DNA of 19,235 nt from the NCBI GenBank assembly GCA_027319565.1, contig DAHVNA010000037.1, positions 1 through 19,235 of the forward strand. The letters are read 5' to 3'. A model generated the notes under the pieces. It worked only from the letters and a program-made list of their open reading frames with translations, did not search any database and was not told the origin of the DNA. Origin of the DNA: Elusimicrobiota bacterium (GTDB lineage Bacteria > Elusimicrobiota > Elusimicrobia > UBA1565 > UBA9628). Below are positions 2,107 to 16,481 of this stretch, piece after piece. The stretch's first letter is position 1, and the number at the start of each line of letters is the position of its first letter. Both the position numbers and the translations under genes were made by a program.

Positions 2107-2180
2107 TGCGCCCGGCAGGACTTGAACCTGCGACCCTCCCGTTATGAGCGGGGTGCTCTGACCAACTGAGCTACGGGCGC
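2107..2180 (-). tRNA. tRNA with CAT anticodon, probably tRNA-Ile2 (lysidine) rather than Met; CCA not encoded
   Basis: GCGCCCG-TA-GCTC AGTTGGTCA GAGC-A-CCCCG CTCATAA CGGGA-GGGTC-GCAGG TTCAAGT CCTGC-CGGGCGC-A folds as a cloverleaf. It has a G1-C72 pair and no GGG/CCC initiator stem. C4-G69 and C5-G68 resemble TilS determinants. Ile2 versus elongator Met is an inference. Confidence 0.9.
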
Positions 2181-4117: not shown

Positions 4118-4486
4118 ATGAAAAGAAATTTAATGCGCTTTCGAGGATACCCCCTGTTTATCTCAAGCGCGCTTTTACTGGCGAGCCTTTCGGGATGTCT
4201 CTACACCAACACCTACGCTCCCAATTCCTACCGTTCAGCGACGCCCATTGACGTCAAAGCCGCCGTTTCCGATCCTATTGTTTCCGGAATGGGATGCACC
4301 TACTCCGCTTTGTGGCTCGTCAGCTGGGGAAACTCGGGATACGCTCTTGCCACTCAAAAAGCGCTCAAAAACGATCCTCAAGGCGTTCTCTATGACGTTA
4401 AATCAGATTTAAAGGTGACCTCTTATTTGCTCGGCCTCTGGACTCGAGCCTGCACCATCGTCACCGGAAGAGCCGGTCACGTGTGA
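4118..4486 (+). CDS. TRL-like lipoprotein
   Basis: Lipobox LSGC. The pattern GxxC…LVSWGNSGY…YDVKSD…LGL…CTIVTG resembles the TRL-like family. AAGGAG SD upstream. Confidence 0.65.
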   Translation: MKRNLMRFRGYPLFISSALLLASLSGCLYTNTYAPNSYRSATPIDVKAAVSDPIVSGMGCTYSALWLVSWGNSGYALATQKALKNDPQGVLYDVKSDLKVTSYLLGLWTRACTIVTGRAGHV

Positions 4487-4944
4487 AAAGACCCCTTCTT
4501 ATCGCCTTTTTCGCATTTCTATTCTTTCCTTCAAAGGCTCTCGCCGCGACCTATAATCAATATCCAAGCGTCGTCAGCCCCAGCGGATATTTCATCGTCT
4601 ATGACGTTCAAGGAACCCTTTCCTTTGAGCCCTCAACCCGCTGGGAACTTCCAAAAAACATCCTGGATCGCGGAGAAGTTCTAGGACAAAGCTGCGCCTA
4701 TGCTCTGAGTATTCCCCTTTCCTTGGCTCTAAGCACGACTAAGATTTCCGGGGCTTACGGAGAAAATGGATACAATAAAGCGGTCAAAAATATTTTAAAA
4801 ACCCACCCCAACATTACCGGAATTTACGACGTCAAGGTCGACACGCATATCATCACTGTTTTAGGAATTTTTACCCGCCAATGCCTGGAATTAACGGCAA
4901 GAGCATTTCAAATTCCGACATCCAGTCCGAGGCAAAAAACATGA
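4483..4944 (+). CDS. Second TRL-like exported protein (paralog of the previous gene)
   Basis: Signal peptide ending in ALA. GQSC…YGENGYNKAV…IYDVKVD…VLGIFTRQCLELTA aligns with the upstream gene. GTGA start/stop overlap. Confidence 0.6.
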   Translation: MKRPLLIAFFAFLFFPSKALAATYNQYPSVVSPSGYFIVYDVQGTLSFEPSTRWELPKNILDRGEVLGQSCAYALSIPLSLALSTTKISGAYGENGYNKAVKNILKTHPNITGIYDVKVDTHIITVLGIFTRQCLELTARAFQIPTSSPRQKT

Positions 4945-5519: not shown

Positions 5520-7105
5520 TGACCGCGAAAAAGATTTCGGCGCTTTTTCTTTTCATCGTCTTGCCCTCCGTTTTATTTATCTTAAAGAAAAATCAACTCT
5601 CTATTCCGCTCATCAGCGACGAAGGGGAATACGCCTATGAAGCTCGCCTACTCTCCGGACAAGGACTGCCCTATTTAGACGCTTACAATCAAAAGCCTCC
5701 GCTCATTTTCTTTCTCTACCGATGGGCCTATCAATTTTCCTCGAATCCCCTTGCCCCTAGAATTCTCAGCTTTATTTTCTCATGTCTAACCCTCTTTTTT
5801 CTTTTTTTCATCACCCCTGAAAGTTTTAGCCTTCTCTCCCGATTGGCGGCCCCAAGTTTTTTCGTCATTCTCAGCTCGACTCCCTTGGCCGATTTATTTT
5901 CGGCTAATTGCGAAATGTTTTTGATCTTGTTTAACGCGGTCTCGATTTGGGCTTTGCTTCAATTCTGGAAAAATCCCCGGAATCTTTTATGGCCGCTTAT
6001 CTCCGGCTTTTTTTGCGGCCTGGCCCTCATGACCAAACAAACCGCCTTCTGGTTTGTCTTGGGTCTCATCCCCTTTTGGGCTCTTAAGCGCGAAACCCGC
6101 CCGCGAACTTTTATCCAGATAAGCTCTTTTCTGCTGGGAACCCTTTTAGTCCCGGCCGTTTGCGCTTTTTATTTTTTTGCCAGAGGAGATTTAAGAGCCT
6201 TCGCGCAAGAAGCCTTTTTCAACAACGGAAGATACATCGCGGTCATCTCAAAGCTGGGATGGAATTCCATCGTCCAGCACGTTTTAATCTGGTGGGGCGG
6301 CTGGTATCTAACGAAAGCAGTGATCCCCAACTCGACGATATGGGCGCTTTGTCTCTACGGCTTAAGCGTTTTAAAAATAAGCGAAGAAAACCGCTTCGGG
6401 GTTTTAGCGACCCTTTGGCTGGGAACGAGTTTTATGGGGGCCATGACCGGGCTTTTTTTATTTCCCCACTATTTTTTTACGGTCTATCCTCCGCTGGCTG
6501 TCTTAGCGGCCCAGGGCCTTGAGTGCCTTCGCGAAAAATATCGCCTCTCTTCGCGTTCTGTGGGAATTTTAATTTTCGCGTTTTGCCTCTATCCGGTTTT
6601 GATTCAAAGCCGCGCTTATTTTGACGAAACTCCTCTTGAGCTTTCAAAAACCCTTCTCTACCCCAATCCCCTTTTTGAATCGAAACTCATCGCCCAGGAA
6701 ATCAGAAAAGAGACGAGCCCCTCGCAAAAAATCTACATCTTCGGTTCCGAGCCTGAAATTTATATTTATAGCGGGCGCAAGGCCGCAACCCCCTACATCA
6801 CTTCTTATCCTCTGACCTTATTCCCCAAGAATAAATCCCAGATATCGGAAGAGTTGTCCAGACTTGAGAAATCCCCTCCGGAATTAATTGTTTATTCCGA
6901 CATCGCGGGCTCCCAAGTCATCGGATCGGCTTTGGGACTTTATTTTAGAGACCAGATTCAAAATTTTCTCAAAGCCCGTTATTTGCCCGTTGGGAAAGCG
7001 CCGGTCTTACGCGCGAACGCGCCGCCGCAGTTTATTCCGGAGACGGCTTTTCCGAAATTAGACTACACAAACGCCCTCTATCTTTTTCGTTTAAAAAAAT
7101 CCTAG
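5519..7105 (+). CDS. ArnT/PMT (GT39/GT83-like) membrane glycosyltransferase
   Basis: DEGEY…GLPYLDAYNQKPPL motif, GLALMTKQ, many TM segments and a C-terminal extracytoplasmic domain. Confidence 0.8.
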   Translation: MTAKKISALFLFIVLPSVLFILKKNQLSIPLISDEGEYAYEARLLSGQGLPYLDAYNQKPPLIFFLYRWAYQFSSNPLAPRILSFIFSCLTLFFLFFITPESFSLLSRLAAPSFFVILSSTPLADLFSANCEMFLILFNAVSIWALLQFWKNPRNLLWPLISGFFCGLALMTKQTAFWFVLGLIPFWALKRETRPRTFIQISSFLLGTLLVPAVCAFYFFARGDLRAFAQEAFFNNGRYIAVISKLGWNSIVQHVLIWWGGWYLTKAVIPNSTIWALCLYGLSVLKISEENRFGVLATLWLGTSFMGAMTGLFLFPHYFFTVYPPLAVLAAQGLECLREKYRLSSRSVGILIFAFCLYPVLIQSRAYFDETPLELSKTLLYPNPLFESKLIAQEIRKETSPSQKIYIFGSEPEIYIYSGRKAATPYITSYPLTLFPKNKSQISEELSRLEKSPPELIVYSDIAGSQVIGSALGLYFRDQIQNFLKARYLPVGKAPVLRANAPPQFIPETAFPKLDYTNALYLFRLKKS

Positions 7106-7770
7106 GAACACGAAGCGGTTCCTTCTTTACAGCCATAGCGGGCCTGATAAAAACATTCTTGTTGAAGCTCTTGGTTTTTTTGGACATGCTTTTCGCATCT
7201 TCTCTCAAGGCCCAGTGACTTTTGATAAGAATCATCCTTTTGAAGACAGCGTCTAAGACAACTTTTTTGACAAGACCTTCGCGAAAAATAAAAATTTTTC
7301 CGTTTCAAACATCGGGCGCGGCATTGGGGCTTGCAATTTCGTTTTAACTCCTCTTGAGCAAGCGACGCGTAAGCGGCCTCGCAATGAATGACGCCATTTC
7401 GAACGCAAAGTTTTGAATTCCACTCAACGCAGCGCTCAATAGAACAGGAAGCCCCTGGCGAGACATTCTGGGGGTTATCCCCATTGGGATTTTCGCTATA
7501 TTCCGAAGGAATTTGTCCCTGAAAGGCCGAGTGGACCGTCGGCGCGCGAACGGAGGGCTGTGAAACCTCAAACTCATTTCCGGATACGGATTTCACCTCG
7601 TCGTTATGGGTAAAATTATTCTTAAGCCGCGAGAAATCGACCGCGGTGTTATCCGACTGATATCCGGAGACATTCCCATTGAGAGTTGGAAACTGTTGCG
7701 CCCGCGATGAAAAGATGAAAACTCCTCCCGCAAAAACCACTAATATCAGGATGAACGCCCATTTTCGCAT
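7102..7770 (-). CDS. Secreted or membrane-anchored cysteine-rich hypothetical protein
   Basis: N-terminal hydrophobic signal, a polar linker and 14 Cys in the C-terminal ~115 aa. It has its own consensus promoter. Confidence 0.75.
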   Translation of the reverse strand: MRKWAFILILVVFAGGVFIFSSRAQQFPTLNGNVSGYQSDNTAVDFSRLKNNFTHNDEVKSVSGNEFEVSQPSVRAPTVHSAFQGQIPSEYSENPNGDNPQNVSPGASCSIERCVEWNSKLCVRNGVIHCEAAYASLAQEELKRNCKPQCRARCLKRKNFYFSRRSCQKSCLRRCLQKDDSYQKSLGLERRCEKHVQKNQELQQECFYQARYGCKEGTASCS

Positions 7771-7776
7771 AAAATC

Positions 7777-7805
7777 ATTATGCGCTGAGTTTGAGCGTTT
7801 GTCAA
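7777..7805 (-). promoter_or_regulatory. Sigma70 promoter TTGACA-N17-CATAAT, leaderless
   Basis: On the minus strand, TTGACA at 7805-7800, a 17-nt spacer, CATAAT at 7782-7777, then 6 nt to ATG 7770. Confidence 0.8.
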
Positions 7806-7872
7806 TTGGGAAGAAAAAAACACGGTAAATTTTGAAAATACCGAATTCGAGGCTATCGCTAGGAATTTGACG

Positions 7873-9474
7873 CTACCGCAAGACAATAGGGAGAATCTTG
7901 GAGAGTTCCGAGCGCGGAAGAAGCTGAGGATTTTGAGAATGATTGTCCAACTCCGCCACATTTTCAACTTCCGGCTCTAAATAATCGTAAAGCGACCCTA
8001 AGGTCACGTTTTTTTTGCCGCTCAACGCCTTTCCGTTGAGTCCGCGCAAGAAATAATAGGTCAAAAGCCCGTGGCCTTGGCTTTTGATGACCTCGGCCGT
8101 TTGATCGTCGCGCGCGGCGGTCAAAACCGCGATTTGGCCGTTTCCAGGGACAAAGCCCGGGCGAACGCGAGTCGACAACGGGCGTATTCCCAGACGGATA
8201 ATTGAGCGCGCGCCAGCGCCGGAAAAACAAGAGTCTAAAACGACGATGATTCGCTTGGCGTGAATCTTCAAAAAATCGGCATAGAGCCTTTTTAACGGAT
8301 AGGCGGTCTTTTCTAAAAACTCCGGATCCCCGTCAAAGGGAACCAGGTAGGCCTGTCCCGTATCCGGATTAGGCGCGCCATGCCCTGAAAAATAAAAAAA
8401 GACGCGGGATTTTGTTCCCACGTTTTTGGGCAGCCAGTCCTCCAAATAAGCCGCCAAATCGCTTTTGGTCGCCGTTTCATTGAGCAGAAAGCGGATATGG
8501 CGCGCAGGCACGCCCAAGGCAAGCATATATTTTTTGACGGTCAGCGCGTCTCTTTGAGAAAATTCGGAATGCGGCAACTTGCCGGCGTATTTCTCGACTC
8601 CCACCACAATCGCAAAATCATCTCGCCGGGGCGGCTCCTCAAAACTAGGCGCGTCCACGTCGCTTTTAATCGCTTTTGTTTTTTTCGCGAGCTTCGATTG
8701 TTTTTTAAGGCTTTCTATTTCCTTGGCGAGAACATCCAAACGCCGCGCGATATCGGCCTGGGTTGAATTTTGGGCGGATTGCGCGGCTTTCAAAGCGATT
8801 TTAGAGACGTCTTCCCGCGTCAAATTCTGTTTGTTGGATAAACGCTCGGCGTCCTCTCGAATACCTGGAGACGGGGGATGACGCCGGTAATCCTCAATAA
8901 GCGCCGCCACCTGCTGGTGTTCGGTCTGATAGGCATAATCGAGAGCGGTCCGTCCATTTTCATCGCTCGCATCGACATCGGCCCCATGGTTGAGCAAAAG
9001 CTCGACTAAACCCGCCTGCCCATATTTCGCGGCCAGCATCAGGGCCGTGCGGCCATAGATGTTTTTGGCGTTGAGGTCCGCTCCATTAAGGATTAAAAAA
9101 TGCGCGACCTCCATCTGTTTTTGGGAAATCGGGGAAGATAAATGGCGAACAGGCATTACATGAAATTTCGGAAAAAGAAAATCGGGCCGGATAAAACCGC
9201 TGTCATTCCAAAGCTGCGGCATATCGGCATGGCCGTTGGAGGCGATTTCCATTAAGGCCGTGTCTCCGGCCTTGTCAACCGCGTTGATATCGGCGCCCTG
9301 ATCAATGAGGCTTTTGACTTTGGAAAGATCCCCTCTGGATACGGCGCGGAAAAATTGAGAGTTCAGTCCGGCGAAAGAAGAACGCGGCAAGAAAAGAAGC
9401 AAAACGGAAAGTAACGGGAAGAAACAGAAAGGCGAAAATGGGAAGAACTGACCTTTGTTTGTCTTTTTGATCAT
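7873..9474 (-). CDS. Secreted ankyrin-repeat + caspase-like (peptidase C14) protein
   Basis: Signal peptide (…SSFA/G), ankyrin repeats (GADINAVDKAGDTAL, GRTALMLAAKYGQ, GRTALDYA) and a coiled-coil. The C14 domain carries the catalytic His (FSGHG) and Cys (LDSCFSG). Confidence 0.9.
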   Translation of the reverse strand: MIKKTNKGQFFPFSPFCFFPLLSVLLLFLPRSSFAGLNSQFFRAVSRGDLSKVKSLIDQGADINAVDKAGDTALMEIASNGHADMPQLWNDSGFIRPDFLFPKFHVMPVRHLSSPISQKQMEVAHFLILNGADLNAKNIYGRTALMLAAKYGQAGLVELLLNHGADVDASDENGRTALDYAYQTEHQQVAALIEDYRRHPPSPGIREDAERLSNKQNLTREDVSKIALKAAQSAQNSTQADIARRLDVLAKEIESLKKQSKLAKKTKAIKSDVDAPSFEEPPRRDDFAIVVGVEKYAGKLPHSEFSQRDALTVKKYMLALGVPARHIRFLLNETATKSDLAAYLEDWLPKNVGTKSRVFFYFSGHGAPNPDTGQAYLVPFDGDPEFLEKTAYPLKRLYADFLKIHAKRIIVVLDSCFSGAGARSIIRLGIRPLSTRVRPGFVPGNGQIAVLTAARDDQTAEVIKSQGHGLLTYYFLRGLNGKALSGKKNVTLGSLYDYLEPEVENVAELDNHSQNPQLLPRSELSKILPIVLR

Positions 9475-10457
9475 CTTTGATCGAACTGCTTTGACTCATC
9501 CCAAGAATCCCAGCACTCATTGGCATGAAGTAAAAGCTCGGGGTTTTCCTGCATCCGATCTATAAACTTTTTGACGATGGGCGACTCCCAAGCCTTGACC
9601 ACCTTGTCCCAAGCGGATTTTAGTTCTTCTTTCTTAAGATCCGCCGCATAGAAAGGAAGGGCGTTGAGGAGTTTAACCTTGCCGTCGGGAACGACCAAGA
9701 CCATGGATTGCGGGTTTTGAAGTCTCACCACCGCTTCACGGCGAATATCCCAAGGATAAGCTGAAATTTTAACCTTATTGCCGAGAGTCTCGGCCCGCTC
9801 TTTAATTTTTTTGAGGGTTTTTTTCCACGCCTCATCTGAAACCGACAAGCGATCCCAGGCCGCCGCGGCCCGGCCCAAGCGCATCATGGGGCCGGTGACA
9901 AACAGGCGCGCGCCCAATGAATGAGCCAATTCATAAGCGGAGACCGCGTCCTCTAAATTCAATCGATTCGGAACGAAAACAAATTCCGGCTCGAGTCCCG
10001 CTTGAGACAAGGCCTTAAGAGCATCCACGGCTTTTTTCCAGGAGCCGCTGGGCCTGACGCGCTCATGAATTTCCGGAGTCGAACCGTCGACGCTAATTTG
10101 AATGGAGGAAATTCCCAAGCGCTTCAAGCGTTCAATCGCCGCTGAATCAATGGCAAGCCCATTGGTCTCGATTTTAATTTGCGCGCCGCCGCGGCTTAAA
10201 ACTTCAAAAACATCCCAAGCGTGTTCGACAAAAAGAGGCTCTCCGCCTCCAAAAGCGACATATGGAATTCCCAATTCGACGATCTGGCGGGATAAAGACA
10301 GGGCTTCTTCTTTGGAGAGCTCTTTTTTCCACGCCTTATCCGGACCAGATTCTTCGCAACAGTGAAGGCAAAAAGAGGTGCAGCGGTTAGTCAGCTGCCA
10401 AGCAAGAAAGAGGGGAGCGCTATAATCGACGATCCGCGCCCCCCTCTCGTGAGTCAC
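9471..10457 (-). CDS. Radical SAM protein 3 (PqqE/MftC-like core, Cys-poor SPASM-like tail)
   Basis: CTSFCLHC (CxxxCxxC), GGGEP, IETNG and QISVDG. The GTG start overlaps the peptide stop. Confidence 0.92.
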   Translation of the reverse strand: MTHERGARIVDYSAPLFLAWQLTNRCTSFCLHCCEESGPDKAWKKELSKEEALSLSRQIVELGIPYVAFGGGEPLFVEHAWDVFEVLSRGGAQIKIETNGLAIDSAAIERLKRLGISSIQISVDGSTPEIHERVRPSGSWKKAVDALKALSQAGLEPEFVFVPNRLNLEDAVSAYELAHSLGARLFVTGPMMRLGRAAAAWDRLSVSDEAWKKTLKKIKERAETLGNKVKISAYPWDIRREAVVRLQNPQSMVLVVPDGKVKLLNALPFYAADLKKEELKSAWDKVVKAWESPIVKKFIDRMQENPELLLHANECWDSWDESKQFDQR

Positions 10458-10576
10458 GTGAACCGAATGTAGGGCTGCGCCATCACCCGCTCGGAAACCT
10501 CTTCCATTTTGGGAGTTTCCCAGACGAGTTTTTTTGAGGCTTTCGCCCCTTCGCTCACGTTTTTTTGGTCGTTCAT
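10454..10576 (-). CDS. 40-aa putative RiPP precursor peptide MNDQKNVSEGAKASKKLVWETPKMEEVSERVMAQPYIRFT
   Basis: AAGGAG SD 5 nt before ATG 10576. It fills the only gap in the operon, and its stop overlaps the next start (GTGA). WxxPxM resembles the (W/Y)xxPx(L/F) leader motif bound by RREs. Confidence 0.8.
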   Translation of the reverse strand: MNDQKNVSEGAKASKKLVWETPKMEEVSERVMAQPYIRFT

Positions 10577-10595
10577 TCTGTCTCCTTCGTGCCGA

Positions 10596-11561
10596 CTAGA
10601 CCATAGCCGGCAAATCGGACGTTTCCAAAGGCCGCAGCTGATTGGCGGCGGCCAAAACGGAATCGTCTTTAAGAATTTCCTCAAAACCTGAAGATATCTT
10701 AGGATTTTGGTAAGCCTTTTGACACTTCTCCCACGCTTGGATTAAAGTTTCTTTTCTCAAATCAGCGCAGGTATAGGGCAAAAAGGCGGACACCCGAACG
10801 CGGCCATCCGGCAAAATCAAAATGGTGGCGGGAGAAGATACTTTCTTGGCCGTTAAGTCCTCTTGAATCGAAAAAGGCCTAAACAAAATCTCCATCTTTC
10901 CAGAAAACTCTTTTTCTTTCATCTCAAGCAAATTATAAAATTTTTCGTATTCCGCAAAAGAGAGGTTGAGTTTTTCCCAGAGTTTGGCCGCGGTTCCAAG
11001 CCGCATCAAACTGCCGGTGTTTAAGCGAAAAGCCCCGAGACTAGCCGCCAAATCAATGACCGCCGCGGCTTCAGAAACATTGATTCTGGTCGGCGCGAAA
11101 GTAATTTCAAGCGGAAGATTAAATTTCCGCGCCGCGCGGCAGGCCGAAAGGGTTTTCTCCAAAAAAGCGCCGGGGCGCATTTTAGAATAAACGGCCTGGG
11201 TGGCGCCGTCAATTGAAATCTGAAGAGACCGGATCGGCAAATGAGAAAGCCTTTCCGCTTCTTTTTCTCCGAAAATTTGGCCATTGGTCTCGACTTTAAG
11301 ATAAACCCCACCTTGCCCCAAAAATTCGGCCAGCTCGAAAAAATGCGGAACAATCAGAGGCTCGCCCCCCGCCAAGAGAAGATACGGCACTTGGGCTTTT
11401 ACAATTTGGCCCGCGATGTTTAACGCCTCGCCGCGGGAAAGCTCATGGAGAAAAGGCCTTCCCGGAGCGGAATCGGTACAGCAATGCAGGCAGGCAAGAT
11501 TGCAGTCTCTCGTCACCTGCCAGGCGATAAAACTCGGCGCCGAAAGATCGGATGTTTTCAT
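10596..11561 (-). CDS. Radical SAM protein 2
   Basis: CNLACLHC, AGGEP, VETNG and QISIDGA. ATGA overlap with the prenyltransferase. Confidence 0.92.
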   Translation of the reverse strand: MKTSDLSAPSFIAWQVTRDCNLACLHCCTDSAPGRPFLHELSRGEALNIAGQIVKAQVPYLLLAGGEPLIVPHFFELAEFLGQGGVYLKVETNGQIFGEKEAERLSHLPIRSLQISIDGATQAVYSKMRPGAFLEKTLSACRAARKFNLPLEITFAPTRINVSEAAAVIDLAASLGAFRLNTGSLMRLGTAAKLWEKLNLSFAEYEKFYNLLEMKEKEFSGKMEILFRPFSIQEDLTAKKVSSPATILILPDGRVRVSAFLPYTCADLRKETLIQAWEKCQKAYQNPKISSGFEEILKDDSVLAAANQLRPLETSDLPAMV

Positions 11562-12484
11562 TTAGAGATCAGGAGAGTCAAGGTAAAAACCGAGGTTGAA
11601 ACGAGATAGCACAAAACGATATTTTTAATCGCCGGAATAAAGAGGCGCGGGCTGTCCCAGGCGTTTAAAGCCGTCTTGGCGCTCAGTATCCAAAATGGAA
11701 GCCCAGAAAAGGCCGCGAAAAAAGCCGCTTTGGGAAAAACTCCCGCCGCCGCTCCCACGATCGCAACCAGAAGGCCCAAGGCGGACAATCCCAAGTATAA
11801 GAAAACCCCGTTTTTTCTCCCCAATCTCACGACGAGGTTCCGCTTTCCCACCAAACGGTCTTGATAAAAATCGGGAATCGCGTTGACGACCGCCAAGGAC
11901 ATAATCAAAAGCCCGGGAACCAAGGAAGCCAAAAGCGCTCCCCAAGAAAATCGCCGGGTATAAAGCGCCAAGCTTCCCAAGGTCATCCAAGGCCCGTAGG
12001 ATAGGCCAATCATCAGTTCCCCCATGCCGCGGTAAACCCATCGAATGGGCGGACCGACATAAAAAAGAGCGGCCAGTCCCCCGAGCAAGGTGTAAAGGAT
12101 GACGGGCCATCCGCCAAATTTCGCCAGGTAAAACCCCACCGCGGCCGCGACCGCAAAGGAGAAAATTCCCAGCCACAGCATCCACTCCGGAATATATTCA
12201 TCATCGGAGGGGTTAAACACGCGATCGGTGCCCATCCGGGCGTCGAAATATTCGTTAAAAGACTCAACCCCCACGACAGACAGGAAAATTCCAAAAAGCC
12301 CCAAGGAGAAAAGATGCGGCGAAAAAGTTTTTTCCACTCCATAGGCCCAGGCCGAGCCTAAAAGATAGGGAAGCAGCCCCGCATAGAGAAAGAAACGATA
12401 GCGAATCAGTGAAAAGACGCGAAAAGGCGCGTCTAAGACACCGGGGACGCCGGGGCACTTCGCGATAGGCGTTTCCGCCGCCAT
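11558..12484 (-). CDS. UbiA-superfamily prenyltransferase (MenA/UBIAD1-like)
   Basis: Asp-rich motifs NEYFDARMGTDR and NAIPDFYQDRLVGKRNL, YRGMGE and multiple TM helices. Start at ATG 12484 by TAATG coupling. Confidence 0.9.
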   Translation of the reverse strand: MAAETPIAKCPGVPGVLDAPFRVFSLIRYRFFLYAGLLPYLLGSAWAYGVEKTFSPHLFSLGLFGIFLSVVGVESFNEYFDARMGTDRVFNPSDDEYIPEWMLWLGIFSFAVAAAVGFYLAKFGGWPVILYTLLGGLAALFYVGPPIRWVYRGMGELMIGLSYGPWMTLGSLALYTRRFSWGALLASLVPGLLIMSLAVVNAIPDFYQDRLVGKRNLVVRLGRKNGVFLYLGLSALGLLVAIVGAAAGVFPKAAFFAAFSGLPFWILSAKTALNAWDSPRLFIPAIKNIVLCYLVSTSVFTLTLLISK

Positions 12485-13461
12485 TAAACCTCGACCCATT
12501 TATGGAGTTTTGAAACCACCGTCGGATCTTTTTCCAACTCCTGGACAAAGCCGTAGACCTTGGGGTTTTTCCAGGCTTCCTGAAAATGCTTCCAGACCCG
12601 GCCCAAGGACTCATCGCGCAAGTTTCCGCAGACAAAAGGAAGGGCGTTAATGAGTTTGACCTTGCCATTGGGCAAAATAATGAAAAGCGCCGCTGGATTT
12701 TCAAGGCGATATTTGAGCTCTTCCAAAAGGCCCATTTCATGGAAATAAACTCTCATTCGCCCTTCATATTCCTTGGCTTTGGCGCGCAAGGCGTCAAAAA
12801 ACTCCGGGTAATCGGCTTCATCGGGAGCGGTCATCTTCCAAGTCCTGACCGCGTTGCCGGTGTACATGATTTTGCCGGTATAGAAGCTGTAAGCCCCCAG
12901 TTGATACGCCAAGTCCACGACATCGGAAATTTCCTTGATGTTGAATTTCGCCGGGACAAAGTTGATTTCAATCGGCACGCCCGCAAGGCCTAGATTTTTA
13001 ATTCCCTCGGTCGCCGATTCAAAACGCCCGTGAATCCGCATCTTGTTAAAAGACGCGGGGTTTGCCCCGTCTAATGAAACCTGGACGGCCTTGACTCCTA
13101 GGGTCTTAAGCCGCCGGCAATTTTCAGGCGTCAAATAATGCCCGTTGGTCTCGATTTTCAGCCCCACCCCGCCCTTAATGATTCTTTCGACCATCTCGAA
13201 AAAATGCGGGTGAACCATCGGCTCGCCGCCGGAAAAAGAGACGTAGGGCACCTGTCCTTCGATTAGCTGATCGATAATCGAAAAAGCCTCGTCTTTCGTC
13301 AATTCGTCTTTAAAGGCTTTTCCCGGCCCGGATTCTTCGATGCAGTGAAGGCAGGCGAGATTGCACTCATTGGTGATCTGCCAGGCGACATAAAGAGGCG
13401 CGCCTAAATCTTCGGAAGAAACCGCTTCTTCCGCTTCTTTAACTTGAGCGGGAGAAGCCAT
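12484..13461 (-). CDS. Radical SAM protein 1
   Basis: APLYVAWQITNECNLACLHC, SGGEP, IETNG and QVSLDGA. Confidence 0.93.
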   Translation of the reverse strand: MASPAQVKEAEEAVSSEDLGAPLYVAWQITNECNLACLHCIEESGPGKAFKDELTKDEAFSIIDQLIEGQVPYVSFSGGEPMVHPHFFEMVERIIKGGVGLKIETNGHYLTPENCRRLKTLGVKAVQVSLDGANPASFNKMRIHGRFESATEGIKNLGLAGVPIEINFVPAKFNIKEISDVVDLAYQLGAYSFYTGKIMYTGNAVRTWKMTAPDEADYPEFFDALRAKAKEYEGRMRVYFHEMGLLEELKYRLENPAALFIILPNGKVKLINALPFVCGNLRDESLGRVWKHFQEAWKNPKVYGFVQELEKDPTVVSKLHKWVEV

Positions 13462-13901
13462 TATTCGACGATGAGGCCCTTGCCTTTGAGATCGGTTAAA
13501 AACCCGGCGGCCTCTTTTTCCATATTTCCGGTCGGATCCTCGTATTTTTCCTTCAGTTTCCCGAATAAGGACGCGGAATCGGCTCCGGCGACGATTTCGC
13601 GAACCACCGCCGCGCCTGTGGGGCTTAAGGTATAAACCTTTTCGGACCGGGTCTCAAACAAAACCGCCCCGAATTTTTCCTCTCTAAATTTCACAAATGG
13701 CGCTAATTTCATAACTCCTCCCTTGGATGCGGCCAAACACGCGGACGCGTCCGCCGCTTCTCTTTCAATGATGTCCTCAAGTTCGCGCCGCACGTTTTCG
13801 CGGCTTTGAACGTTGACTGCGTCTTTAGAGTTCGCTTCTTTTTCCGATACGGCAAAATCTCCCGACTTCCAGGCTTTTTTAATCAAGGATTGATAAGACA
13901 T
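13461..13901 (-). CDS. PqqD/RRE-family peptide-binding protein with a 63-aa N-terminal extension
   Basis: Residues 64-146 (MKLAPFVKFREEKFGAVLFETRSEKVYTLSPTGAAVV…LKEKY…FLTDLKGKGLIVE) show the 3-strand/3-helix PqqD/MftB pattern. TAATG coupling at both ends. An internal SD and ATG lie at 13712. Confidence 0.85.
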   Translation of the reverse strand: MSYQSLIKKAWKSGDFAVSEKEANSKDAVNVQSRENVRRELEDIIEREAADASACLAASKGGVMKLAPFVKFREEKFGAVLFETRSEKVYTLSPTGAAVVREIVAGADSASLFGKLKEKYEDPTGNMEKEAAGFLTDLKGKGLIVE

Positions 13902-14854
13902 TAAAATTCTCTCTTGGCCATGACTTCAATAAAGAAAGACAGATCTTTGGCCTCGTCTTTAAGCGGCAGACCCAAACACAGGGCTTTCATCGAATCGACG
14001 ATCTCGCGCCCTTTAACGCGCGCTTCATCTAAGAAACCCTCCTTCTTAACGAAAGAAATCGCCTCTTTGACCGCGTTTGAGTCGGTTTCGCCGCGGCGCC
14101 ATAAATCCAAAAAGTTTCCGCGGGTTTTCGGGTTTTGAAGGGCCAAAATGCAGGGCAATGTCAGACGGCGATTCATCAAATCCTGGGCCGCGGGTTTTCC
14201 CGAGACTTCCTCGGTTAAAAGAAAATCATGGATGTCGTCGACAATTTGAAGCAAGATTCCCGCCGATAAAGCGAGCCGCGGCGGATCGGAGGACTCATGG
14301 GGAAAGGGGCTTATTTCGGAGAGAACCTTGCCGCACCACTCAAACAAGGCGCCGGTTTTTCGAGCGGCGATTCCCAAATAAGCGTCTACGGAGACCTCGA
14401 CACTTCCTTTTAGAAATTCTTCCTGAAGCTCTCCGGCCGCCATTTCCCGAACCGTCGTCACCAGATGTTCCGGGGCTCTTGGAGAAATATCGATGGCCTC
14501 TTCAAGGCCTTGAGAAAAAGCGAGATCGCCCAGCAAAAGCGCGACCGTATTTCCAAAAAGAGCGTTCGGCGTGGCCACGCCGCGGCGGGTGTCGGCCTTA
14601 TCCACGCAATCATCATGCAAAAGAGAGGCGTTGTGAACAAACTCCATCGCGCGGGAAGCCGCCTCCGCTTTTTTTTCGTCAACCCCCAAGGCTCTGGCCA
14701 AAAGAAGGCAAAAGCGGGCTCTCAGCATTTTCCCCGGGCGGCCCACGTAACCGGCCAGGGTCTCCCCCACGCGCCCGGAAAGCCTGCGCGCGCGGCTCTC
14801 CATTCCGAGGCGAACTCTCTCGATGGAATCTTCAAGGCTAAGTAGCGCTAGCAT
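13901..14854 (-). CDS. Trans-polyprenyl diphosphate synthase (probably long-chain)
   Basis: GKMLR, FARM (HNASLLHDDCVD…RRG), KTGALF and SARM (LQIVDDIHD). Confidence 0.93.
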   Translation of the reverse strand: MLALLSLEDSIERVRLGMESRARRLSGRVGETLAGYVGRPGKMLRARFCLLLARALGVDEKKAEAASRAMEFVHNASLLHDDCVDKADTRRGVATPNALFGNTVALLLGDLAFSQGLEEAIDISPRAPEHLVTTVREMAAGELQEEFLKGSVEVSVDAYLGIAARKTGALFEWCGKVLSEISPFPHESSDPPRLALSAGILLQIVDDIHDFLLTEEVSGKPAAQDLMNRRLTLPCILALQNPKTRGNFLDLWRRGETDSNAVKEAISFVKKEGFLDEARVKGREIVDSMKALCLGLPLKDEAKDLSFFIEVMAKREF

Positions 14855-14868
14855 AGATTTAGATATCT

Positions 14869-14877
14869 ATTATAGCA
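14869..14877 (-). promoter_or_regulatory. Extended -10 promoter TG-C-TATAAT for the prenyl/rSAM operon
   Basis: Perfect TGnTATAAT 14 nt upstream of ATG 14854, with no SD. Confidence 0.7.
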
Positions 14878-14957
14878 TTCTGAAAAAAATTCCATCATTA
14901 AAAACGTTAGGTACACGCCCCCGTTAAATTGTTAAATTAAGTAGCGTCTTATTTTAT

Positions 14958-15431
14958 ATGCCGAGCCGAAATACATCGAATTTCCTCCGCCGTTTGTTTC
15001 GCGTTAGCTTAGCGCTCAAGGCAGTGGACGGAGTTCTTGAAACAGCGGGCGGAATTCTCTTAGCGATCTTCAATCGAGGAACGCTCAACCAGATGGTCAT
15101 CGCCTTGACCCAGCATGAATTGACCGAAGATCCAAAAGATTTCGTGGCCAATCATCTTCGTTTACTTGTCGGGCATCTCACCAGCGACGTCAAGTTGTTC
15201 GCGGTAGCCTACCTTTTGATTCATGGACTTTTGAAAGTGGCGCTCGCCATTAACTTACTGAAAGGACGGACCTGGGTCTATCCCTGGGCGATGGGTTTCT
15301 TTAGCCTCTTCATGGCCTATGAAGCTTATCGTCTGAGCTACGCTCATTCCCTGCCGATGGCGTGCTTCTTTGCCTTAGACCTAGCGATTGTCGCGCTCCT
15401 TTACTGGGAACACAGGGTAAAAACGCTATGA
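14958..15431 (+). CDS. DUF2127-like membrane protein
   Basis: LKAVDGVLETAGG…HELTEDPKDFVA…YLLIHGLLK…WVYP…YEAY pattern with about 4 TM segments. Confidence 0.75.
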   Translation: MPSRNTSNFLRRLFRVSLALKAVDGVLETAGGILLAIFNRGTLNQMVIALTQHELTEDPKDFVANHLRLLVGHLTSDVKLFAVAYLLIHGLLKVALAINLLKGRTWVYPWAMGFFSLFMAYEAYRLSYAHSLPMACFFALDLAIVALLYWEHRVKTL

Positions 15432-16406: not shown

Positions 16407-16481
16407 GCGCTCGTAACACAACGGATAGTGTCCAAGCCTGCGAAGCTTGGTATCCAGGTTCGATTCCCGGCGAGCGCACCA
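16407..16481 (+). tRNA. tRNA-Arg(GCG), CCA encoded
   Basis: GCGCTCG-TA-ACAC AACGGATA GTGT-C-CAAGC CTGCGAA GCTTG-GTAT-CCAGG TTCGATT CCCGG-CGAGCGC-ACCA. A20 Arg determinant in the D-loop, and one A-C mismatch in the T stem. Confidence 0.92.

Follow-up and report, generated by a model that had tools for sequence, protein, structure and literature searches.

The 40-residue open reading frame located between two radical SAM genes in this Elusimicrobiota contig is a real gene, and its product is a widespread and apparently undescribed RiPP precursor. This precursor reading is strong. The window, which is the whole stretch of DNA that was analyzed, is 19,235 nucleotides long. The peptide probably serves as the starting material of a membrane molecule not yet described, and possibly of a respiratory electron carrier, because its near-constant tail extends from bacteria to an archaeon and is accompanied by radical SAM enzymes and a vitamin-K-type prenyltransferase. 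In its specific form, this reading holds that the peptide gives rise to a polyprenylated electron carrier of the membrane that substitutes for a quinone, and we assign it a probability of about 0.5. To our knowledge, the head group of every respiratory quinone described so far derives from a small aromatic metabolite, and the peptide-derived cofactors known to us (PQQ and mycofactocin) are soluble. A 2026 survey of 26,264 genomes reported many lineages without any quinone pathway and expected undiscovered quinones (PMC13386864). The cassette described here is a seven-gene candidate for this gap.

The precursor gene lies at 10454-10576 on the minus strand. As described in the original prediction, it encodes 40 amino acids and is preceded by the Shine-Dalgarno sequence AAGGAG (10582-10587, minus), 5 nt ahead of the ATG. 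This AAGGAG is retained in all five of the closest relatives. The ATG is located 19 nt past the stop codon of radical SAM 2, and at its stop the peptide gene shares 4 nt with radical SAM 3, which starts with GTG. The peptide is composed of a variable N-terminus (residues 1-18), a leader motif (W19-x-x-P22-x-M24-E-E-V27) and an invariant tail (M32-A-Q-P-Y-I-R-F-T40), and its C-terminal part is translated as WETPKMEEVS-ERVMAQPYIRFT-stop. The core contains neither Cys nor ExxxY, as had been noted, and no Pfam or NCBIfam family was matched at E 0.1. A 76-residue form listed by the ORF finder, which starts at a TTG at 10684 inside radical SAM 2, was rejected as the gene because the frame upstream of the 40-residue ORF contains stop codons in three of the five closest relatives (L010, L011 and L013). 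A promoter and terminator scan of positions 7000-15400 gave no signal that distinguished the peptide gene.

A homologue search with the peptide identified 452 proteins. Among the 120 homologues listed, 117 end in VMAQPYIRFT, two differ at one residue and one is a read-through. In a profile search represented at 50% identity (n = 98), 91 representatives end in IRFT and one in IRFS, while the remaining six have other ends, one being a read-through and the rest apparently mis-called or spurious. These results bear out the expectation of a novel precursor family with an invariant C-terminus. The tail Tyr is replaced by Phe in four of the 98 representatives and by Cys in one, and the last Phe of the tail is invariant. 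Genome scans for the peptide confirmed 284 of 313 and 304 of 314 stretches, about 300 genome loci, and 80 loci were retained from each of the two scans. Across 138 loci, which comprise 125 distinct 69-nt strings and were selected on QP[YF]IRF, the residues W, P, V, M, A, Q, P, I, R, F and T and the presence of a stop are invariant and the spacing from W to stop is constant. All synonymous codons are used across the same loci (six for Arg; four each for Pro, Ala and Thr), as are all three stop codons. The amino acids are thus fixed while synonymous codons are free, which indicates selection on the peptide.

An unconditioned test of this conservation was made by searching metagenomes with the enzyme alignment, which gave 77 loci. 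Leader and tail were both present at 59 of these, the tail was present at a contig edge at two more, and at the other 16 the contig ends before the tail position. Among 18 doubtful loci, six were read by eye, and one unrelated match to the loose pattern was removed. No core other than MAQP[Y/F]IRFT was found among the 77 loci. Elsewhere, plasmids gave no match to the peptide, viral contigs gave three pattern matches with none confirmed, and PDB sequences gave no meaningful match to the peptide profile. All 30 ESM Atlas matches were without a shared Pfam family, and the nearest named clusters were lasso-leader peptides (0.76-0.78), a lead only. A second, orphan copy of the peptide occurs in the genome of locus L109 (L135, 7156-7302), beside ORFs that look to us like a transposase.

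The operon is ordered polyprenyl synthase, PqqD-type RiPP recognition element (RRE), radical SAM 1, UbiA-family prenyltransferase, radical SAM 2, peptide and radical SAM 3, and its seven genes are tightly coupled. Among the NCBIfam models shown, no cut-off was reached by any of the seven proteins. A short leader-core precursor gene beside its enzymes and a PqqD-like RRE in the cluster are features of RRE-dependent radical SAM RiPPs, and both are present here. Two architectures were observed. Type II, found in Elusimicrobiota (including the analyzed window) and proteobacteria, contains RRE, radical SAM 1, UbiA, radical SAM 2, peptide and radical SAM 3; the synthase is upstream of it in Elusimicrobiota, and no synthase match was found in the proteobacterial loci. 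Type I is a minimal cassette of peptide, RRE, one radical SAM enzyme and UbiA, with a synthase near 12 of 43 loci and with record labels that include Planctomycetota, Omnitrophota, WOR-3, Lentisphaerae, Aminicenantia and Bacillota, among others. The position of the peptide gene differs between the architectures while its sequence is kept. In the first 80 loci, radical SAM 2 was found in 77, radical SAM 3 in 76, UbiA in 75, radical SAM 1 in 71, the RRE in 67 and the synthase in 49, missing members being mostly due to contig ends. In 66 further loci, a radical SAM enzyme was found in 60 and UbiA and the RRE in 59 each. The Phe variant of the peptide occurs at three loci with intact cassettes, one of which is labeled Sulfolobaceae and has three radical SAM genes. 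No hydroxylase or oxygenase, methyltransferase, peptidase or transporter is conserved in the type I loci, and no additional conserved enzyme cluster adjoins the cassette. The minimal cassette is thus little machinery for a quinone head.

Several other features were observed in or near these loci. At L003 (6455-7957, on the contig of L010), the insertion of a gene for a 500-residue Fic-domain protein separates the peptide from radical SAM 3, and the initial 25 codons of radical SAM 3 are left as a copy behind the peptide. The archaeal-labeled cassette (L168, 2461-8045) includes an unassigned 110-residue ORF and has a heme O synthase gene directly upstream. In the window, an ankyrin-repeat protein with a caspase-like (C14) domain is encoded at 7873-9474 (minus), its start overlapping the stop of radical SAM 3, and its His and Cys motifs look intact. 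This gene was rejected as a fixed leader peptidase; it follows the cassette in the five closest genomes and is not conserved more widely. The closest genomes also retain a Cys-rich, probably exported protein of 222 residues (7102-7770, minus), for which Pfam gave no match. At 4118-4944 (plus), two small exported proteins, the first of the TRL-like family, are encoded side by side between a gene pair that we read as phosphate-transporter-like and a PAP2 gene. ARAGORN called tRNA-Met(CAT) at 2107-2180 (minus) and tRNA-Arg(GCG) at 16407-16481 (plus), the GCG anticodon being unusual.

The RRE (13461-13901, minus) matches PF05402 over residues 64-146 (37.1 bits, cut-off 23.4), scores below every NCBIfam cut-off and is present wherever the contig reaches its place. 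Its N-terminal extension of about 63 residues (13713-13901, minus) has no Pfam match and occurs in Elusimicrobiota loci only. The motif [Y/W]xxPx[L/V/I/F/A] is described as the leader motif that binds discrete RREs (PMC13381572), and WxxP has been reported for StsA also (PMC12710340). The WxxPx[L/M] leader of the peptide fits this published motif; position six over the 138 loci is Leu in 94, Met in 33 and Ile in seven. In addition, the paeninodin lasso model was faintly matched by 14 of 31 members, the first at profile positions 1-10, and the PqqA model by two of 36 and one of 31. The resemblance to PqqA and lasso RRE-binding motifs claimed in the original prediction is therefore in keeping with both the published motif and the faint paeninodin matches. 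Binding itself had also been proposed, and a predicted complex of the RRE domain with the peptide scored 0.56, versus 0.05 for the best control, with at least 95% contact agreement between runs and a partner pLDDT of at least 57. The mark used for such complexes was reached by 116 of 157 solved pairs and two of 215 mismatched pairs, and passes at 0.60 or under comprised 18 of the 157 solved pairs and both mismatches. The pass may reflect likeness to solved RRE complexes, and the prediction is a weak hint of binding.

The three radical SAM enzymes are paralogues, encoded on the minus strand at 12484-13461 (radical SAM 1), 10596-11561 (radical SAM 2) and 9471-10457 (radical SAM 3, whose start overlaps the peptide stop). 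Radical SAM 1 matches PF04055 and has the CX3CX2C motif without the SPASM/twitch cysteine set. Its predicted structure (pLDDT 93.3) has SkfB and PqqE as best fold matches. A tree was built from 58 enzymes, which represent selected loci and include four outgroup rows. CX3CX2C is kept by all the cassette enzymes in the tree, and the 54 cassette enzymes have 0-4 C-terminal Cys residues versus 9-11 in the four outgroup SPASM proteins, so that the C-terminal cysteine set of SPASM/twitch proteins is lacking. Auxiliary clusters define the SPASM and twitch domains (PMC10114670), and the cassette enzymes therefore represent a family without auxiliary clusters. Among NCBIfam models, MftC was the best or second-best for the cassette enzymes (102-134, cut-off 265), and the heme-pathway models AhbD and NirJ2 scored about equally. 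All Phe-variant enzymes fall in one clade (100/99), and inside it the three archaeal copies group together (96/89), separate from radical SAM 1, 2 and 3; thus, the enzyme was probably triplicated twice. The presence of one enzyme in the minimal cassette versus three paralogues here suggests several successive steps, all of which would be done by one enzyme in type I.

The UbiA-family membrane prenyltransferase (11558-12499, minus; PF01040) has both Asp-rich motifs conserved. Its best NCBIfam matches are MenA models, all under cut-off, and its sole PDB sequence match is UBIAD1. Judged by sequence, the enzyme is MenA/UBIAD1-like and not of the heme O synthase or 4-hydroxybenzoate type. The trans-polyprenyl diphosphate synthase (13901-14854, minus; PF00348) has its best matches among long-chain or encapsulin-cargo models. 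The source genome contains two UbiA-family genes, a heme O synthase and the cassette gene, and two trans-prenyl synthases, a separate farnesyl diphosphate synthase and the cassette synthase. Thus, the only candidate quinone-tailing enzymes of the genome are inside the cassette.

The respiratory genes of the source genome (91.65% complete) include complex I, with NuoD over cut-off, an alternative complex III-type locus, in which subunit names beyond the NrfD family are our reading of the sequence, and two heme-copper oxidase subunits. A chain of complex I, alternative complex III and oxidases needs a lipid carrier. At that completeness, MqnA/D, UbiD and a full-length MenG/UbiE were not found in the genome, no MenB was over cut-off, and the bc1 cytochrome b was not found either. 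Respiring groundwater Elusimicrobia have been described (10.1101/765248), and the available text of that source makes no mention of their quinone. The fixed MenA-like prenyltransferase together with this respiratory gene context is a stronger lead than the reading in the original prediction.

Among 201 Elusimicrobiota genomes, the peptide was identified in 11 and a PF02621 match in 11 others. A COX1-family gene, a class that includes NO reductases, is present in 21 genomes, of which nine have the peptide, nine have both futalosine genes, none has peptide and futalosine genes together and three have neither; in the other 180, which have no COX1-family gene, the peptide was found in only two. 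All peptide-positive genomes of this sample belong to one order, and the exclusion is therefore one lineage contrast. The three of the 21 with neither cassette nor futalosine pair (G192, G076 and G128) have heme-copper oxidases, and their only UbiA gene is a heme O synthase. Oxidase chains can therefore lack a detectable quinone route in any case.

Outside Elusimicrobiota, the co-occurrence tests were mixed. In subsets of the cassette loci found, MenB was over cut-off in none of 50 cassette genomes, and PF02621 was matched in three of 50 and none of 28. Nqr-like neighbors occur among the 43 type I loci (NqrF-like 12, NqrE 11, NqrB, NqrC and NqrD 10 each, NqrA six), and the majority, about 30 of 43, are without them. 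At L105, NqrB and NqrD pass their cut-offs and the other four Nqr subunits are below. The cassette splits the Nqr-like operon at some loci, for example between nqrE and nqrF in L095 and L151. An ORF of about 150 residues without a family follows the NqrF-like gene at L105 (5873-6334) and at four other type I loci. In proteobacteria, the neighbors are MtrCAB with NapC, formate dehydrogenase-N or quinol:fumarate reductase. In one proteobacterial family of 201 genomes the peptide was found in four, all with MtrA within 5-12 kb, and it was absent from 60 of 64 MtrA genomes of the same family. Most proteobacteria make ubiquinone (PMC13386864). Among the 151 genomes of a Planctomycetota order, the peptide was found in seven (one match with stops left out) and PF02621 in 17, with an overlap of one, about the chance expectation. 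Among 16 nqrB-like genomes of this order, one has the peptide, six have a Men or Mqn gene and nine have neither. Mutual exclusion of the cassette and known pathways was thus uninformative in the order, and the version restricted to nqrB gave no support. In addition, PF02621 is matched in the genome of the archaeal cassette. Because of these Elusimicrobiota, Planctomycetota, MtrA and archaeal counter-cases, the absence of a known pathway proves little by itself.

The carrier reading would proceed as follows. The RRE would grip the W-x-x-P-x-M leader, as the motif and, weakly, the model suggest, and would position the invariant tail for the radical SAM enzyme or enzymes. These would rework the tail, most likely around Y/F36, F39 and the terminal Thr. 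Tyr and Phe, put forward in the original prediction as modification sites, are thus candidates. Chemistry that needs a phenol hydroxyl cannot be universal, because the Tyr is a Phe in four of the 98 representatives and in three intact cassettes. The MenA-like enzyme, going by its family, would join the long isoprenoid chain from the operon synthase to the resulting aromatic unit. General proteases are proposed to trim the peptide, because no peptidase is conserved in the cassette. The product would then carry electrons in the membrane, here from complex I to alternative complex III. An invariant tail with the stop directly behind it is consistent with a single, defined small molecule, by analogy to PqqA and MftA. 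A fuller version of the proposal is tentative: the cassette would define a new carrier class in which radical SAM enzymes without auxiliary clusters make the nine-residue tail into a redox head that the MenA-like enzyme prenylates, and the product would be the main carrier in a respiring Elusimicrobiota order and a low-potential carrier elsewhere. If this is true, such a low-potential carrier has a scattered distribution that takes in Planctomycetota, Omnitrophota, proteobacteria and an archaeon. A membrane UbiA enzyme that prenylates a RiPP, and a radical SAM family whose auxiliary clusters were lost, would be new enzymology even with a product that has no redox activity.

Four other explanations were considered. 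First, the product may stay a peptide, as a cross-linked, prenylated and non-redox lipopeptide that serves, for example, as a membrane-anchored regulator, assembly factor or accessory subunit of complexes that use quinones. At least nine residues are invariant, which exceeds what a small cofactor needs, no peptidase, hydroxylase or transporter is conserved, the respiratory neighbors vary by lineage and the change from Tyr to Phe is tolerated, all of which agree with a lipopeptide. However, it does not explain why the sole long-chain synthase and the sole non-heme UbiA gene are in the operon while the chain needs a carrier, nor the complementary pattern with futalosine genes, and we consider it unlikely. 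Secondly, the peptide could be a reusable scaffold or activating subunit on which the enzymes build a quinone head out of a small metabolite, with the MenA-like enzyme prenylating that head afterwards. The cysteines that typical peptide maturases have for auxiliary clusters are lacking (0-4 versus 9-11), and this agrees with such a role, as do the near-equal AhbD/NirJ2 and MftC scores and the report of species with menaquinone and no known pathway (PMC13386864). A discrete RRE, a leader motif, a fixed spacer and an invariant tail that ends at the stop are nevertheless the anatomy of a RiPP substrate, and the best folds are the peptide maturases SkfB and PqqE, which makes a scaffold improbable. 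Third, the cassette might supply a single membrane redox complex with a prenylated ligand or prosthetic group, and not make a carrier of the free pool, which would account for cassettes inside Nqr-like operons, such as those in the nqrE/nqrF gap of L095 and L151. The neighboring complex varies by lineage (Nqr, Mtr/NapC, Fdn, Frd, heme O synthase or, here, none); therefore a shared carrier fits better, and a dedicated prosthetic group is very improbable. Lastly, a chance frame or conserved RNA element between two genes, which the short ORF and the lack of a family model might suggest, is refuted by fixed amino acids with varying synonymous and stop codons and by a gene that moves between architectures with its sequence kept.

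The cassette was compared with known systems. In the available text of PMC7470986, PMC9062424, PMC9266682, PMC10114670, PMC13381572, PMC12710340 (with one supplementary file), PMC13386864 (with eight) and 10.1101/765248, no description of it was found; external data sets may list the RRE or the cluster. The words UbiA and prenyl are absent from the main text of the RiPP-mining papers searched for both, and the core motif was found in unrelated papers only.

PqqA has a W-x-x-P leader and a Glu-x3-Tyr core. The cassette shares with PQQ biosynthesis a short W-x-x-P precursor, a discrete RRE of the PqqD family, a PqqE-like fold and a conserved core Tyr, but it has no Glu-x3-Tyr and no SPASM cysteines, includes a fixed MenA-like prenyltransferase and occurs in anaerobes and an archaeon. 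PqqB, PqqC and PqqF are not among the conserved neighbors, PqqB and PqqC are absent from the window, and the PQQ models are under cut-off (PqqD 15.8 of 46 bits, PqqE at most 80.3 of 381). With mycofactocin, the cassette shares an invariant C-terminal core at the stop, a small RRE and a radical SAM enzyme nearest to MftC. The MftA core ends in Val-Tyr, whereas the cassette core ends in Phe-Thr, with no MftD, MftE or MftF neighbors and with MftB (18.7 of 33) and MftC (at most 133.9 of 265) under cut-off. Mycofactocin, a peptide-derived redox cofactor (PMC10114670), is glycosylated, whereas the cassette product is proposed to have a lipid tail instead. Paeninodin-type lasso peptides, as WxxP RRE ligands, share the W-x-x-P-x-[L/M/I/F] leader, but the invariant cassette core is unrelated to lasso cores, the lasso cyclase and leader peptidase (B2 protease) are absent from the window and the conserved neighbors, and the peptide scores 13.7 bits against the lasso cut-off of 27. 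Menaquinone tailing has in common a MenA/UBIAD1-like enzyme, a trans-prenyl synthase and neighbors that use low-potential quinones; it differs in that the cassette UbiA is below all MenA cut-offs and has a fixed link to a peptide and RRE, and the source genome is without the MenB, MqnA/D and MenG of the Men or futalosine pathways. Thus, while falling outside each of these systems by its defining members, the cassette resembles the first steps of PQQ or mycofactocin biosynthesis joined to the tailing steps of menaquinone.
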